From Escherichia coli (lineage in GTDB: Bacteria; Pseudomonadota; Gammaproteobacteria; Enterobacterales; Enterobacteriaceae): 64,000 nt of DNA. Made by a program: the position numbers and the translations under genes. The stretch lies in NCBI RefSeq assembly GCF_046105845.1, contig NZ_CP151004.1. The stretch is one strand, 5' to 3'. Positions 5,752-35,715 of the stretch are shown piece by piece; the stretch's first letter is position 1, and the number at the start of each line of letters is the position of its first letter. A model generated the notes under the pieces. The model was not told the DNA's origin. It worked only from the letters and a program-made list of their open reading frames with translations, and did no database searches.

Positions 5752-5943
5752 AATGGCTCACTCAAGCTTGCTCACGATTGATTCCAGTAACAAACCGTAT
5801 TGTGTAATTATTTCTATAGCAGGTCGCTATATAGGCTTGTATACATCGAATAATTTGAAAATCAAAGAGATAGGTAGATTTTCACTCGAAAGTAGTATTA
5901 CGTGTAAGTGAGGAGTAATTATTGTTCGGTATCAAAGGGAGAC

Positions 5944-14154: not shown

Positions 14155-14581
14155 TATTATTGTCTCTCTGTATTCCTTCCCTACTCCTGTCTGACCCTGA
14201 TACATCACTGTTCAGAGTCGCTACCCGTCACGATAGACCGAAATCATGAAGATTCACGGCGCGCAATGCCTGGGTCTACGGTGAGAAGACCGTTGCCTTG
14301 TGGCAGCTATCGACATCACGAATGGCGTCTGTCCACGCCATACGTAGATTTCACTAGCACGGTAAACATGGTATTTACATGCATGGTTATGCGCATATAA
14401 GAATACTGTTTTTTTTCTTCCTCGAATGTTTTCGCAAAACACCAGGGGATTGTCAAAGCAAAACATCGATTTTTAGTACAACATGCCAGATATTCATTAC
14501 CAGGGGCGTTTATTCATCATTTAATCGGCTTATAAAGCGGGAAATTTAAGTAGCAGAGGTGATAATGACGGGAGAGTTTGA

Positions 14582-28798: not shown

Positions 28799-30453
28799 TC
28801 CGCGCGACCGCGCGCCAGCCACAGCACGCGTGAGAACATTTTTTTCAGCAGCGTCGGTACGGAGTCCACACCACGACGTCCGGCCTCCATTGCCACTTCA
28901 ATGGCAAGATCGGGTTTGGAAGAGCGATGGATCGCTTTCGAGATAATTTTGCGCAGATTCATCGGTACATTTTCCGGGATTTGCGCCACGCGGTGGAACA
29001 CATCGGAAAATCCCTGGCGATACATAAAATGTTCCATATCCAGCGCCGGTAACGCCGTTAAATGTTCTCGTTCGGCTTCCCGATCGTTATTCAACAGGCT
29101 GCGTACCGTAGCGGCATATTTCTTCCCTGCTTCATCGCCATCGACCAGTACATGCCATTCAATCCCCATTCGGCGGGCAAATTTAACCAGTGGCTTTAGC
29201 CCGGACTGGGCAAACTCAATGACCTTGATTCCTTCGGCATCAAAATGATGTCCGCACTGACGCGCCAGTTCATTGATAACCCAGGTTTCCGTTTCGCCTT
29301 CCACCAGCAGCCAGCAGCGTGCAAACAGCGATGACGGACGATTAAAACGAATGTGGAAAGAGATGCGTCGGCTGTCTTCGGTACTCAAACCACTCGGTCC
29401 CAGACGCCAGGCGGCAACGCGCGAGGACTCACGTACCAGTCGGCAAATATGCTCTACCGGCGTTAACGAAAGCAACTCACCCGAGTTGGTGGTGGCAATG
29501 CGCTGCAATGGCAGAAGATTCAACAGATGCCAGGCAACTGAAAGCATAATGGGGTGTAAACGGGTTTCTGGATCTTCGATCAGCAACAATGGACGGGCGT
29601 CTTTATCCAGTCGCAATGTGCCTTTTGCCTGCAACAAAGTAGCAAACAGGCCGAGCAAAATAACCCGATACGAGCGCCCTCCTGGTCGGTCAATCATCCG
29701 GTTGATGATATCCAGATAGCGCCAGCTTCGTTGCTCATTGCTGGCTCGCCGCCGCATTAAACGATATCGCGCCTGTCCGGCCCCCTGCTCAGAGAAATAA
29801 TGCTCTAGCAGCTGTACCATTGCGGAAAGTCCCTGACGAATCTGCCCATCAGAGAGATTTTGCGGATGTGAGGATAACTCACGGGCGAGGAAATCGAGCT
29901 GGCGCGCGGTGACTTCCACATTAGGGACATTTGGCACCGTGCCGTTACGAATACGGCGCATAAAACGGGCATCACGCAAGCGCAGCACCGGCATTAAACG
30001 CACCAGATGGCGTGCCTGATCGTTAATATCCTCGACATCAATCGGATGTCCGTCTTTATCGAGAAAACTGCGCAGTGTCATCACGCTGCCGTCTTCCGCA
30101 CTCTCCCCTTCCAGACGATAAAAAATACGGTGATAGCCATCGGTGCATGGCGTCCAGCACGCTTCCAGCGGCCGATAACGGCGAACCCGATGTCGGCCTG
30201 GCAACGATTCGCGGAAGGTCAAAATAATATGCAGATGATGTTCTCGCCCGTTGATATCTCCCGGCGGGAACCAGAAATCGTCGCGCTCAAAATGGTAGAG
30301 ATCTGATTCTGGCGATAGCAGCAGAGTTAAGGCGTCCAGCAAGCTGGATTTACCCCACGCGTTCTCCCCAATCAGGACGTTGTTTTGTTCCAGCATCAAC
30401 GACAAACGGTTGATACCGCGAAAACCCACAATTTCAACGCGCTCAAGAATCAT
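28795..30453 (-). CDS. ybjD: OLD-family putative nuclease YbjD (N-terminal ABC-type ATPase, C-terminal Toprim-like region)
   Basis: 552 aa; Walker A GENAWGKSS at the N-terminus; recognised as YbjD; stop overlaps the ybjX stop (shared TTAA). Confidence 0.85.
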   Translation of the reverse strand: MILERVEIVGFRGINRLSLMLEQNNVLIGENAWGKSSLLDALTLLLSPESDLYHFERDDFWFPPGDINGREHHLHIILTFRESLPGRHRVRRYRPLEACWTPCTDGYHRIFYRLEGESAEDGSVMTLRSFLDKDGHPIDVEDINDQARHLVRLMPVLRLRDARFMRRIRNGTVPNVPNVEVTARQLDFLARELSSHPQNLSDGQIRQGLSAMVQLLEHYFSEQGAGQARYRLMRRRASNEQRSWRYLDIINRMIDRPGGRSYRVILLGLFATLLQAKGTLRLDKDARPLLLIEDPETRLHPIMLSVAWHLLNLLPLQRIATTNSGELLSLTPVEHICRLVRESSRVAAWRLGPSGLSTEDSRRISFHIRFNRPSSLFARCWLLVEGETETWVINELARQCGHHFDAEGIKVIEFAQSGLKPLVKFARRMGIEWHVLVDGDEAGKKYAATVRSLLNNDREAEREHLTALPALDMEHFMYRQGFSDVFHRVAQIPENVPMNLRKIISKAIHRSSKPDLAIEVAMEAGRRGVDSVPTLLKKMFSRVLWLARGRAD

Positions 30454-30878
30454 ATCCCCTCCAGAAATATGTGACTTATCCTTTACGCTGGCAGTATAAC
30501 GGGAAAGGCCATGCTAATACGTGATGACATCACATTTAAGCATGGCAAATGTCTGAAAAATGAGCGAATAATCGCGTTATACTCCCTCTTGCTGATAAGC
30601 CTGCAAAAACAACAAAATCAAATAATTAGCATGATAAATTATTTTTTATTACGCCTAAAGGATTAAATCTTTTGCTTGCACTACACTGTCAATCAGACAA
30701 ATGACTATATGGGGCAACCCGCTGTTGCCCTAAATCAAATTTACTGGATTTATTTATCTGGTGAATGACTCGCCTTCGTTTTTAAAATAGCCGCGCATTA
30801 TTTCCGTCGTCACTTTTTTACGACGACCCTATAAAACGACCATATTTTTCACAGGGTCAATTTTTAATTGAGGTGGAT

Positions 30879-31574
30879 ATGTTCAGAAAATTAGCAGCTG
30901 AATGTTTTGGTACTTTCTGGCTTGTTTTTGGTGGCTGTGGTAGTGCTGTACTGGCCGCAGGCTTCCCGGAATTAGGCATTGGTTTTGCCGGCGTGGCGCT
31001 GGCATTCGGTCTGACCGTTCTGACGATGGCCTTTGCTGTTGGTCATATTTCTGGTGGTCATTTTAACCCGGCGGTCACTATTGGTTTATGGGCTGGCGGA
31101 CGTTTCCCGGCAAAAGAAGTCGTTGGCTACGTAATTGCCCAGGTTGTCGGCGGTATTGTTGCGGCGGCGCTGCTGTATTTAATTGCCAGTGGTAAAACGG
31201 GTTTTGACGCGGCAGCCAGCGGTTTTGCTTCTAACGGTTATGGCGAGCATTCGCCAGGCGGTTATTCCATGCTTTCCGCACTGGTAGTTGAACTGGTATT
31301 GAGTGCAGGTTTCCTGCTGGTGATCCACGGCGCAACCGACAAATACGCTCCGGCAGGTTTTGCACCGATCGCTATTGGTCTGGCCTTAACCCTGATTCAC
31401 TTAATCAGTATTCCGGTGACTAACACTTCTGTTAACCCGGCGCGCAGCACCGCGGTTGCTATCTTCCAGGGCGGCTGGGCATTAGAACAACTGTGGTTCT
31501 TCTGGGTGGTGCCAATTGTCGGCGGTATTATCGGTGGTCTGATTTACCGGACCCTGCTGGAAAAGCGTAATTAA
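30879..31574 (+). CDS. aqpZ: Aquaporin Z
   Basis: ORF 30873..31574; start at ATG gives [22 protein letters not shown], 231 aa; two NPA motifs. Confidence 0.95.
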
Positions 31575-31639
31575 TTAGCATTGGCATTTTATTTGCCCTG
31601 GTTGTTTTATCTTCGACGTTACAAACCGCACGGGTGTTG

Positions 31640-31860
31640 GTGGCGTCAAAATCGCTGAAGCGTTCCCCGAAGGCCGGGGCAGCCCACATGGATGTGGGCT
31701 GAGGGCGCGTCTTACAGGACGTTACCTCGCGCCCGACCCGGTAGCCGAAGGGGATAAGCGGAAGGCACCGCGCAGCGGCGATTTTGTTCGCCAGAGCCCG
31801 GGGGTGCAGGGGGCGGCGGCGACTGGCCGCCCCCTGCGCGCTCCTTGCACCAGTGGCTTT
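31640..31860. other. GC-rich, hairpin-dense intergenic element (unclassified)
   Basis: About 220 bp of high GC with several inverted repeats, including a perfect 11-bp stem at 31806..31837 and palindrome gcccacat-gg-atgtgggc at 31682..31699. Confidence 0.3.
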
Positions 31861-32030
31861 ATATGGCATTGCACATGAAAGGAGCGCAACAATGCTAAAC
31901 ACTCATAGAGAATTAAAAATCCCCCTCTGATGCATAACATTTCCTTTTAATTGCAACTTTACTCGTCCTTCCGCTTTCAGTAGTGTGTCATCGCGCATTT
32001 CGACTTCATCTTTGCAAGGACTGGGTTTTC

Positions 32031-32930
32031 ATGTTTTCTGGGCTGTTAATCATTCTGGTTCCCCTGATTGTGGGTTACCTCATTCCGCTTCGCCAAAAAG
32101 CTGCATTAAGAGTTATTAATCAGCTCTTAAGCTGGATGGTTTACCTTATTCTCTTTTTTATGGGTATCAGTCTGGCGTTTCTCGATAACCTCGCCAGTAA
32201 CCTGTTGGCAATTCTGCATTATTCCGCCGTCAGCATTACCATTATTTTACTCTGCAATATTATTGCGTTGTTGTGGCTGGAGCGCGGTCTGCCGTGGCGC
32301 AATCACCACCAGCAAGAAAAACTCCCGTCGCGTATTGCGATGGCGCTGGAGTCGCTAAAACTGTGCGGCGTAGTAGTGATTGGTTTTGCCATTGGCCTGA
32401 GTGGACTGGCTTTCTTACAACATGCGACCGAAGCCAGTGAATACACCTTAATTCTGCTACTTTTCCTCGTCGGTATTCAGTTGCGCAATAATGGCATGAC
32501 CTTAAAGCAGATTGTCCTTAATCGCCGGGGAATGATTGTCGCCGTGGTGGTGGTTGTCAGTTCATTAATTGGTGGTTTAATTAACGCCTTTATTCTTGAT
32601 CTCCCCATCAATACCGCGCTGGCAATGGCCTCTGGTTTCGGCTGGTATTCTCTTTCCGGTATTTTATTGACCGAATCTTTTGGTCCGGTAATCGGGAGCG
32701 CGGCGTTTTTTAATGATCTGGCCCGTGAGCTGATTGCAATTATGTTGATCCCTGGGCTGATTCGCCGCAGCCGCTCTACCGCACTGGGCTTATGCGGTGC
32801 CACGTCGATGGATTTCACCCTGCCCGTTCTTCAACGTACTGGCGGGCTGGATATGGTCCCGGCGGCGATTGTTCACGGTTTTATTCTTAGTCTGTTAGTG
32901 CCGATCCTCATCGCCTTTTTCTCTGCATAA
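32031..32930 (+). CDS. lysO: Lysine exporter LysO
   Basis: ORF 31983..32930; start at internal ATG gives MFSGLLIILVPLIVGYLIP, 299 aa; polytopic membrane protein. Confidence 0.85.
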   Translation: MFSGLLIILVPLIVGYLIPLRQKAALRVINQLLSWMVYLILFFMGISLAFLDNLASNLLAILHYSAVSITIILLCNIIALLWLERGLPWRNHHQQEKLPSRIAMALESLKLCGVVVIGFAIGLSGLAFLQHATEASEYTLILLLFLVGIQLRNNGMTLKQIVLNRRGMIVAVVVVVSSLIGGLINAFILDLPINTALAMASGFGWYSLSGILLTESFGPVIGSAAFFNDLARELIAIMLIPGLIRRSRSTALGLCGATSMDFTLPVLQRTGGLDMVPAAIVHGFILSLLVPILIAFFSA

Positions 32931-32963
32931 TACCTCTCTGGCGGTAGATCCCTGCCGCCAAAA

Positions 32964-32977
32964 TTGCGCTAAATCAA
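32964..32977 (+). promoter_or_regulatory. Candidate FNR half-site pair upstream of hcp (TTGCG-ctaa-ATCAA)
   Basis: Close to the FNR consensus TTGAT-N4-ATCAA; about 100 bp upstream of the hcp start. Confidence 0.45.
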
Positions 32978-33036
32978 TCTCCCTTAAAGTTGCATAAAAA
33001 ATCCCTTTTATCCCCGCGTTAAGCGTCTTAACCTTA

Positions 33037-33059
33037 AACATGTATATTAAATATAACTT
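33037..33059 (+). promoter_or_regulatory. Candidate NsrR operator upstream of hcp
   Basis: AT-rich inverted repeat aacatgtatatt-aaatataactt resembling the NsrR 11-1-11 motif, overlapping the likely core promoter. Confidence 0.5.
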
Positions 33060-33073
33060 TAAAAGGTGTGATC

Positions 33074-34726
33074 ATGTTTTGTGTGCAATGTGAACAAACT
33101 ATCCGTACTCCGGCAGGAAACGGCTGCTCATACGCGCAGGGGATGTGTGGTAAAACGGCGGAAACCTCTGACCTTCAGGATTTACTCATCGCGGCGCTGC
33201 AAGGGCTTTCGGCCTGGGCGGTAAAAGCGCGTGAATACGGCATCATCAACCACGATGTAGACAGCTTTGCGCCACGCGCATTTTTCTCAACCCTGACCAA
33301 CGTTAACTTCGATTCTCCGCGTATTGTCGGCTACGCTCGTGAAGCGATTGCCCTGCGCGAGGCGCTGAAAGCACAATGCCTGGCTGTAGATGCCAACGCG
33401 CACGTCGATAACCCGATGGCTGACCTGCAACTGGTGAGCGACGATCTCGGCGAGCTGCAACGTCAGGCAGCAGAATTTACCCCTAACAAAGATAAAGCGG
33501 CGATTGGCGAAAACATTCTCGGCCTGCGTCTGCTGTGCCTGTATGGCCTGAAAGGTGCGGCGGCCTATATGGAACACGCACACGTTCTCGGTCAATACGA
33601 CAATGATATTTACGCCCAGTACCATAAAATCATGGCGTGGCTGGGGACCTGGCCTGCCGATATGAACGCGCTTCTTGAGTGTTCAATGGAAATCGGCCAG
33701 ATGAACTTCAAAGTGATGAGCATTCTGGATGCAGGCGAAACCAGTAAATACGGTCACCCGACGCCAACCCAGGTCAACGTCAAAGCGACGGCGGGTAAAT
33801 GCATTCTGATTTCCGGTCACGATCTCAAAGATCTCTACAACCTGCTGGAACAGACCGAAGGCACGGGCGTTAATGTCTACACCCACGGTGAAATGCTGCC
33901 TGCGCATGGCTACCCGGAGCTGCGTAAATTCAAGCATCTGGTCGGTAACTACGGCAGCGGCTGGCAGAATCAGCAAGTGGAGTTCGCTCGTTTCCCTGGC
34001 CCCATCGTGATGACCTCGAACTGCATCATCGACCCAACCGTAGGCGCTTATGACGATCGTATCTGGACCCGCAGCATCGTTGGCTGGCCGGGTGTGCGTC
34101 ATCTGGATGGCGAAGATTTCTCTGCGGTCATCGCCCAGGCGCAACAAATGGCGGGCTTCCCGTACAGCGAAATTCCGCACCTGATCACCGTGGGCTTTGG
34201 TCGTCAAACGCTGCTTGGCGCAGCGGATACGCTGATTGATCTGGTAAGCCGTGAAAAACTGCGTCATATCTTCCTGCTTGGCGGCTGTGACGGCGCACGC
34301 GGCGAGCGTCACTACTTCACCGATTTCGCCACCAACGTGCCGGATGACTGTCTGATCCTGACTCTCGCCTGTGGTAAATATCGCTTTAACAAACTCGAGT
34401 TTGGCGATATCGAAGGTCTGCCGCGTCTGGTAGATGCTGGTCAGTGTAACGATGCTTACTCAGCGATTATTCTGGCGGTAACGCTGGCAGAAAAACTGGG
34501 CTGCGGTGTCAACGATCTGCCGCTGTCGCTGGTGCTCTCGTGGTTTGAACAGAAAGCGATTGTCATTCTGCTGACACTGCTTTCTCTGGGTGTGAAAAAT
34601 ATCGTAACCGGCCCGACTGCACCTGGTTTCCTGACACCAGACCTGCTGGCGGTGCTGAACGAGAAATTCGGCCTGCGTTCTATCACCACTGTTGAAGAAG
34701 ACATGAAGCAACTGTTGAGCGCGTAA
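33074..34726 (+). CDS. hcp: Hybrid-cluster protein (hydroxylamine reductase / NO reductase)
   Basis: ORF 33068..34726; start gives [20 protein letters not shown], 550 aa; N-terminal Cys motif. Confidence 0.95.
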
Positions 34727-34737
34727 GGAGTTTGTCG

Positions 34738-35706
34738 ATGACGATGCCAACGAATCAATGCCCGTGGCGGATGCAGGTTCATCACATTACGCAAGAAACG
34801 CCGGATGTATGGACGATTTCCCTGATTTGCCACGATTACTACCCATATCGCGCCGGGCAATATGCACTGGTCAGCGTGCGTAACTCAGCGGAAACGCTGC
34901 GTGCTTACACCATTTCCTCCACGCCAGGCGTGAGTGAATACATCACCCTGACTGTGCGGCGGATTGATGACGGAGTCGGCTCCCAGTGGCTGACGCGCGA
35001 TGTAAAACGCGGTGATTATCTCTGGCTTTCGGACGCGATGGGGGAATTTACCTGCGACGATAAAGCAGAAGATAAATTCCTGTTGCTGGCGGCAGGCTGC
35101 GGCGTCACGCCGATTATGTCGATGCGTCGCTGGCTGGCGAAGAACCGTCCGCAGGCCGATGTGCAGGTGATCTACAACGTGCGTTCGCCGCAGGATGTTA
35201 TTTTCGCCGATGAGTGGCGTAACTATCCGGTGACGCTGGTGGCAGAAAATAACGTTACCGAAGGCTTTATCGCTGGTCGTCTCACTCGCGAACTGCTGGC
35301 AGGTGTCCCTGACTTAACTTCACGTACCGTGATGACCTGCGGCCCGGCTCCGTATATGGATTGGGTAGAGCAGGAAGTGAAAGCGCTCGGCGTGACGCGT
35401 TTCTTTAAAGAGAAATTCTTCACCCCAGTAGCGGAAGCGGCGACCAGCGGTCTGAAATTCACCAAACTGCAACCGGCACGAGAATTTTACGCCCCGTTTG
35501 GCACCACGCTACTGGAGGCGCTGGAAAGCAATAACGTTCCGGTTGTCGCCGCCTGCCGTGCAGGTGTTTGCGGCTGCTGTAAGACGAAAGTGGTTTCCGG
35601 TGAATATACGGTGAGCAGCACAATGACGCTGACCGACGCCGAAATCGCTGAAGGTTACGTGCTGGCCTGCTCCTGCCATCCGCAGGGAGATTTGGTTCTC
35701 GCATAA
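34738..35706 (+). CDS. hcr: NADH oxidoreductase for Hcp (FNR-like FAD/NAD domain plus C-terminal 2Fe-2S ferredoxin)
   Basis: ORF 34732..35706; start at internal ATG gives MTMPTNQCPWRMQVHHITQETPDVW, 322 aa; C-terminal CRAGVCGCC cluster. Confidence 0.95.
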   Translation: MTMPTNQCPWRMQVHHITQETPDVWTISLICHDYYPYRAGQYALVSVRNSAETLRAYTISSTPGVSEYITLTVRRIDDGVGSQWLTRDVKRGDYLWLSDAMGEFTCDDKAEDKFLLLAAGCGVTPIMSMRRWLAKNRPQADVQVIYNVRSPQDVIFADEWRNYPVTLVAENNVTEGFIAGRLTRELLAGVPDLTSRTVMTCGPAPYMDWVEQEVKALGVTRFFKEKFFTPVAEAATSGLKFTKLQPAREFYAPFGTTLLEALESNNVPVVAACRAGVCGCCKTKVVSGEYTVSSTMTLTDAEIAEGYVLACSCHPQGDLVLA

Positions 35707-35715
35707 TCGTCTTAT

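Follow-up and report, generated by a model that had tools for sequence, protein, structure and literature searches.

FNR provides activation in the absence of oxygen, and NsrR is a repressor that is released when nitric oxide (NO) attacks its iron-sulfur cluster. An OxyR input to hcp has also been reported in the literature. The closest described system for the locus discussed here is the hcp-hcr promoter of Escherichia coli K-12, which combines an FNR site at -72.5 with NarL/NarP binding further upstream and NsrR binding over the transcript start. The position of the FNR site relative to the transcript start was given in Table 1 of Myers 2013 (PMC3688515), where hcp-hcr is classed as directly FNR-activated. 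The NsrR target was found in an earlier K-12 ChIP-chip study, as cited in Mehta 2015 (PMC5320621); the latter work placed the NsrR peak summit in strain CFT073 22 bp upstream of the hcp start codon and reported a 44-fold induction of hcp in that strain under NO-generating conditions (nitrate-derived NO). An hcp::lacZ fusion is routinely used as an NsrR-dependent NO reporter.

Two wider groups of promoters serve as a reference. The Class II FNR-activated promoters (narG, nirB, and dmsA, with their site at about -41.5) share the dyad family and anaerobic activation with hcp, whereas the hcp site has a published position of -72.5 (class-I-type) and has TTGCG instead of TTGAT as its left half. The other E. 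coli NsrR operators (ytfE, hmp, ygbA, and yeaR) resemble that of hcp in being an 11-1-11 inverted repeat of the AAGATGCATTT-N-AAATGCATCTT type; they overlap the core promoter, as the hcp operator probably does. The hcp arms differ from these in carrying TA for the central GC (ATGTAT/ATATAA versus ATGCAT), although the operator still ranks second genome-wide, and hcp has an additional candidate site 50 bp upstream.

The window (the whole stretch of 64,000 nucleotides that was analysed) is E. coli chromosome and carries the already known, characterised hcp-hcr promoter of an ordinary E. coli. The gene order, all on the + strand, is aqpZ, lysO (ybjE), hcp, hcr, and poxB, and the fnr and nsrR genes are located outside the window. 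The coding sequences of hcp (hybrid cluster protein; 33074..34726, + strand, 550 aa, no internal stop) and hcr (NADH oxidoreductase; 34738..35706, + strand, 322 aa) are both full length, and the proteins are identical to their K-12 counterparts at 545 of 550 and 318 of 322 residues, respectively. We take 33074 as the hcp ATG on the basis of the K-12 annotation, the conserved ATGTTT, and an AGGTG Shine-Dalgarno sequence; a mechanical list of open reading frames places the start elsewhere, at a GTG at 33068. The lysO-hcp spacer comprises 32931-33073 (143 bp, 38% GC). Judging from its sequence and from the literature on identical sequences, this spacer is almost certainly the known hcp-hcr promoter, with FNR activation and NsrR repression.

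The locus lysO-hcp-hcr-poxB, the spacing, the start codon, and both regulator sites are shared with K-12. Over 32901-33100, 198 of 200 bases are identical to MG1655, and neither of the two differences falls in the FNR site or the main NsrR site. One is a synonymous change at 32927, in the last lysO codon. The other, at 32996 (A in the window and G in K-12), is the sole difference in the spacer and corresponds to position 10 of the left half of the upstream NsrR-like site. The FNR site and the main NsrR operator are base-for-base the same in the window, K-12 MG1655, and CFT073.

The FNR binding site, TTGCGCTAAATCAA, occupies 32964..32977 (this and the other binding sites are given without a strand). 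Written as TTGCG-CTAA-ATCAA, it agrees with the consensus TTGAT-N4-ATCAA at 8 of the 10 specified positions, with G3 and C12 kept and a perfect right half. The hcp site in Table S6 of Myers 2013 (PMC3688515), TTGATTTAGCGCAA, is the reverse complement of the window 14-mer and was FNR ChIP-seq positive in K-12, with a PatSer score of 13.11 (ln p -11.6) that exceeds the authors' precision-recall threshold. The genome coordinate printed there agrees with the position found here to within 1 bp, once the U00096.2/.3 offset is allowed for. A log-odds matrix built from 61 published ChIP-positive sites, with hcp and aqpZ left out, gives 12.8 bits at 32964, which is rank 5 of about 64,000 window positions; bound sites span 11.75-21.3 bits, and the score falls near the bottom of that range, at the 8th percentile. 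Weak on sequence alone, the site needs support from its context, which the hcp promoter supplies. Since its centre lies at 32970.5, the published -72.5 (PMC3688515) would put the transcript start at 33043 (+ strand).

The main NsrR operator, AACATGTATAT-T-AAATATAACTT, is an 11-1-11 repeat at 33037..33059 with its centre at 33048 (about +6), so that it would span -6 to +17 of the transcript. It reads AACATGTATATTAAATATAACTT in full, and each arm matches AAGATGCATTT at 8 of 11 positions. With a log-odds matrix built from 25 published sites, again without hcp, it scores 25.9 of a possible 31.9 bits (half-sites 12.6 and 13.2 bits), ranks first in the window, and outscores 96% of the training sites of the matrix. 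Per position, the exact p amounts to about 5e-10, and none of 100 window shuffles reached the score. Given this score and rank, and no shuffle equalling it, the NsrR operator stands on sequence alone. Table 4 of Mehta 2015 (PMC5320621) lists the hcp operator as AAGTTATATTTAATATACATGTT, the reverse complement of 33037-33059, as NsrR ChIP-seq positive in CFT073, and its ln P of -23.87 makes it the second-best 11-1-11 site in the genome of that strain. The same core had been predicted by comparative genomics in Rodionov 2005 (PMC1274295; Table S2, cATGtATaTTAAATatAaC, -28).

These results bear on a sequence-only reading of the same DNA, which had described an FNR site resembling the consensus dyad and an AT-rich inverted repeat resembling the NsrR operator just upstream of an hcp start at 33074, and had concluded that the control region is intact. 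Its letters and positions proved exact. Both sites are occupied by their regulators in strains carrying identical sequences (PMC3688515 for FNR and PMC5320621 for NsrR); in an alignment with the K-12 hcp promoter the characterised sites fall at the same positions, and the matrices give 12.8 and 25.9 bits there. Its statement that hcp-hcr is induced anaerobically by FNR and repressed by NsrR when NO is absent agrees with the literature on these same sequences. The region is indeed intact, with both sites as in K-12 and CFT073, both genes full length, and the arrangement recurring across species (see below). As a picture of the promoter, the reading holds for these two sites and was incomplete beyond them, as it left out the NarL/NarP site, the second NsrR-like site with its rare A at 32996, and a hairpin.

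To follow the arrangement across species, loci were retrieved from a genome collection on the basis of a degenerate hcp N-terminal pattern (MFCVQCEQT), which yielded 120 loci, 116 of them with at least 170 nt of upstream sequence. Both sites, defined as an FNR match of at least 10 bits lying 97-113 bp, and an NsrR match of at least 19 bits lying 20-36 bp, from the ATG, are present in 87 of these 116, and all 87 appear from their record titles to be Enterobacterales. The centre-to-centre distance between the two sites is 77.5 bp in the window and in 51 of the 87 loci (range 72.5-83.5). In an alignment of 28 genera, the FNR site shows no variation in its TTG, in one A of its spacer, or in its ATCAA; most informative positions of the NsrR operator are likewise invariant, and 33010-33027 between the two sites varies freely. 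Aeromonas lacks a comparable NsrR site; its sequence at the same distance is a perfect TTGATCTGCATCAA. The deviating left half TTGCG is kept across the Enterobacterales, from Escherichia to Yersinia, and this pattern would point to selection for a sub-optimal FNR site instead of decay. The kept imperfect half-site and the fixed 77.5-bp spacing would together illustrate clearly how selection maintains the architecture of a promoter.

Considering the degeneracy of the FNR consensus, the 14-mer at 32964-32977 could be a chance near-match without a role in hcp control. With only 8 of 10 consensus positions matched, it belongs to a class of sites (at most 2 mismatches) that occurs 46 times in the window against 32 expected, which is unremarkable, and about 1-1.6 matches of 12.8-bit quality are expected by chance per 64 kb. 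Yet when the 143-bp spacer was shuffled 20,000 times with its dinucleotide content preserved, the score was reached just 50 times (p = 0.0025), the exact 14-mer recurs in 55 of the 87 species loci with a constant spacing to the NsrR operator, in contrast to the drift of neighbouring spacer columns, and the identical K-12 sequence is bound by FNR above the threshold mentioned above (PMC3688515). Taken together, we regard a chance match as very improbable. Much the same holds for the notion that 33037-33059 is no specific NsrR operator, just part of a promoter or leader that is rich in AT, or the target of some general AT-binding protein. The arms are just 7/11 self-complementary, and both the spacer (38% GC) and the NsrR matrix are AT-rich. 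However, shuffles that preserve the dinucleotide content of the spacer never reached the score (0 of 20,000), the informative positions (the G of CATG and the AAC of AACTT) are invariant across the 28 genera, and the rank of the site in the CFT073 genome comes with ChIP-seq occupancy (PMC5320621). A nonspecific AT-rich element is hard to reconcile with these observations, and we give it very little credence.

The second NsrR-like site calls for a more cautious weighing. It has the form AAGTTGCATAA-A-AAATCCCTTTT and reads AAGTTGCATAAAAAATCCCTTTT at 32987..33009. With its centre at 32998 (about -45), it precedes the main operator by 50 bp, and its left half is strong and its right half weak. At 19.95 bits it is the second-best NsrR match in the window and equals the median of the published sites, with p about 1e-7 per position. 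Its likeness to NsrR half-sites might be incidental to a -35 or alpha-CTD contact region. The best-conserved part, CCTTTT (33004-33009), sits at the expected -35 position, the right half contributes only 8.1 bits, and Salmonella, Citrobacter, Enterobacter, and Klebsiella, where hcp is still NsrR-regulated via the main site, have a degenerated left half AAGTTGCAT. On the other hand, a score of 20 bits is reached in only 2 of 20,000 spacer shuffles (p = 1e-4), and a strong left half is found in Enterobacteriaceae, Pectobacteriaceae, and Yersiniaceae at 50-52 bp from the main operator. A match of at least 15 bits occurs at that distance in 26 of the 87 species (strongly in Kluyvera, Buttiauxella, Mangrovibacter, Pectobacterium, Brenneria, and Yersinia) versus 0 of 87 at each of three control offsets. 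Moreover, the CFT073 version of the site, AAGTTGCATTA, is listed in Table 2 of Mehta 2015 (PMC5320621) as a third 11-bp motif under the hcp NsrR peak; the distance printed for it (11) mismatches the coordinates here (77), and the sequence is unique within the spacer. We therefore lean against a purely incidental likeness, while keeping it as a possibility of some weight.

The polymorphic base 32996 lends this upstream site a further aspect. The 61-mer around 32996, compared over 5,426 complete E. coli genomes, is of the K-12 type (G) in 3,843 of them and of the CFT073 type (T together with 33004 T) in 1,120; the window haplotype (A) is rare, with 32 genomes, and T alone occurs in 1. The predicted scores of the site are 17.98 bits for K-12, 19.83 for CFT073, and 19.95 for the window, and T alone at 32996 would give 21.43. 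A speculative scenario, which we put forward tentatively and consider rather doubtful as a whole, is that 32987-33009 may be a working auxiliary NsrR operator, ancestral to the Enterobacterales and repeatedly lost, five helical turns from the main operator, whose 32996 alleles might set lineage-specific NO thresholds for hcp-hcr in E. coli. A second NsrR target at the hcp promoter was reportedly examined by Chismon et al. in 2010; if so, just the natural-variation aspect would be new. As the hcp promoter serves as an intracellular NO reporter, the natural alleles of the second site could shift the sensitivity of that reporter.

The core promoter is best described around the putative start at 33043. 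A candidate -10 hexamer, TAACCT (TAnnnT), is located at 33029..33034 on the + strand, 8 bp upstream of this start. T33029 is invariant, and A33030 is shared by about 90% of 88 species; Pectobacterium, Serratia, and Yersinia have TATGCT as their hexamer. The main NsrR operator begins 3 bp past the candidate hexamer. A strict sigma-70 consensus scan of 32850-33150 found neither promoter nor terminator, a result that is uninformative because the promoter is activator-dependent; the poor -35 region and the empty scan fit such a promoter. Myers 2013 (PMC3688515) noted the absence of a sigma-70 ChIP peak at hcp and cited sigma-E dependence, and a by-eye search upstream of hcp for the sigma-E promoter GGAACTT-N16-TCNAA gave no convincing match.

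Upstream of the FNR site, a candidate NarL/NarP 7-2-7 site, TACCTCT-CT-GGCGGTA, spans 32931..32946 and begins directly past the lysO stop codon, where its TAC is nearly invariant. Its 2 mismatches to TACYYMT-NN-AKRRGTA both fall in the right heptamer, and the window holds 6 such matches versus 2.7 expected. At the aligned position, a site with at most 3 mismatches is present in 45 of 52 Enterobacteriaceae. With the start at 33043 its centre falls exactly at -104.5, which is reportedly the NarL/NarP position at the hcp promoter (Filenko/Chismon) and which in turn would support that start. Candidate NarP sites were also marked in the hcp alignment of Rodionov 2005 (PMC1274295; Fig. S1). A NarL/NarP function of 32931-32946 seems probable.

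The right NarL heptamer is overlapped by a hairpin or inverted repeat, TGGCGGTAG-atcc-CTGCCGCCA, at 32939..32960 on the + strand (9 bp; downstream of the lysO stop codon and upstream of the FNR site). Its RNA fold has -16.5 kcal/mol (z = -3.9), and 0 of 200 shuffles were as stable. In 50 distinct sequences, 98% of cells are paired; changes on both sides occur at 2 pairs only, and one pair shows UG/UA/CG alternation, but there is little true covariation. A role as lysO intrinsic terminator is not supported, as the hairpin is followed by AAAATT instead of a T-run and the covariation is thin. An inverted pair of NarL-type heptamers would be just as good a reading of the repeat. An Rfam search of 29000-37000 at E <= 1 returned zero matches.

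In short, the promoter would work as follows; occupancy and the -72.5 position are taken from the literature on identical sequences, and the sequences themselves, the K-12 identity, the scores, and the conservation were obtained here. Without oxygen, [4Fe-4S] FNR would bind the dyad at 32964-32977, 72.5 bp upstream of the transcript start, and activate a promoter with a weak core from this class-I-type position, presumably by contacting the C-terminal domain of the RNA polymerase alpha subunit. As long as [4Fe-4S] NsrR occupies the operator at 33037-33059 (about -6 to +17), initiation would be blocked, and damage of the NsrR cluster by NO would release the repressor and derepress hcp-hcr. NarL/NarP at 32931-32946 (-104.5) may add a nitrate/nitrite input, and repression is probably helped by the weaker of the two NsrR-like sites, the second one (32987-33009, about -45), which covers the -35 region. 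With a standard, intact control region, K-12-like anaerobic and NO-responsive expression of the hybrid cluster protein is to be expected.

Several other sites in the window deserve mention. A 14-mer one base off the hcp FNR site, TTGCCCTAAATCAA, is found between ybjD and aqpZ (30725-30738), precedes the aqpZ ATG by about 140 bp, and scores higher than the hcp site (13.9 bits). Its reverse complement is a ChIP-seq-positive FNR site (aqpZ/ybjD) in Myers 2013 (PMC3688515), without an assigned regulatory effect. A common origin of the hcp and aqpZ 14-mers was rejected, as their likeness ends at the 14-mer. The aqpZ-lysO spacer (31619-31892) holds a GC-rich repeat of about 275 bp that is found at a median of 4 (maximum 9) places per E. 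coli genome with about 92% identity, and this spacer is matched over at least 80% of its length in only 895 of 5,426 genomes. In strain N3, an IS110-family transposase gene lies between aqpZ and lysO; the window has no such gene there. A weak NsrR-like match, ACATTTCCTTTTAATTGCAACTT (31937-31959, 15.7 bits), is located 72-94 bp upstream of the lysO start and may well be due to chance.

The top FNR matrix match in the window, TTGATCTAACACAA (1006-1019, 14.1 bits), overlaps the approximate ycaC start. Another FNR-like sequence, TTGTTCGGTATCAA at 5922-5935 (reverse complement TTGATACCGAACAA), has 1 mismatch to the consensus and precedes the dmsA start (- strand) by about 310 bp; presumably, it is the known dmsA FNR site. 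A ChIP-positive dmsA peak is listed in Myers 2013 (PMC3688515). Finally, the lrp-trxB spacer contains AACATCGATTTTTAGTACAACAT (14462-14484), whose reverse complement is listed as a trxB NsrR site with ChIP-seq support in CFT073 (Mehta 2015, Table 4, PMC5320621).
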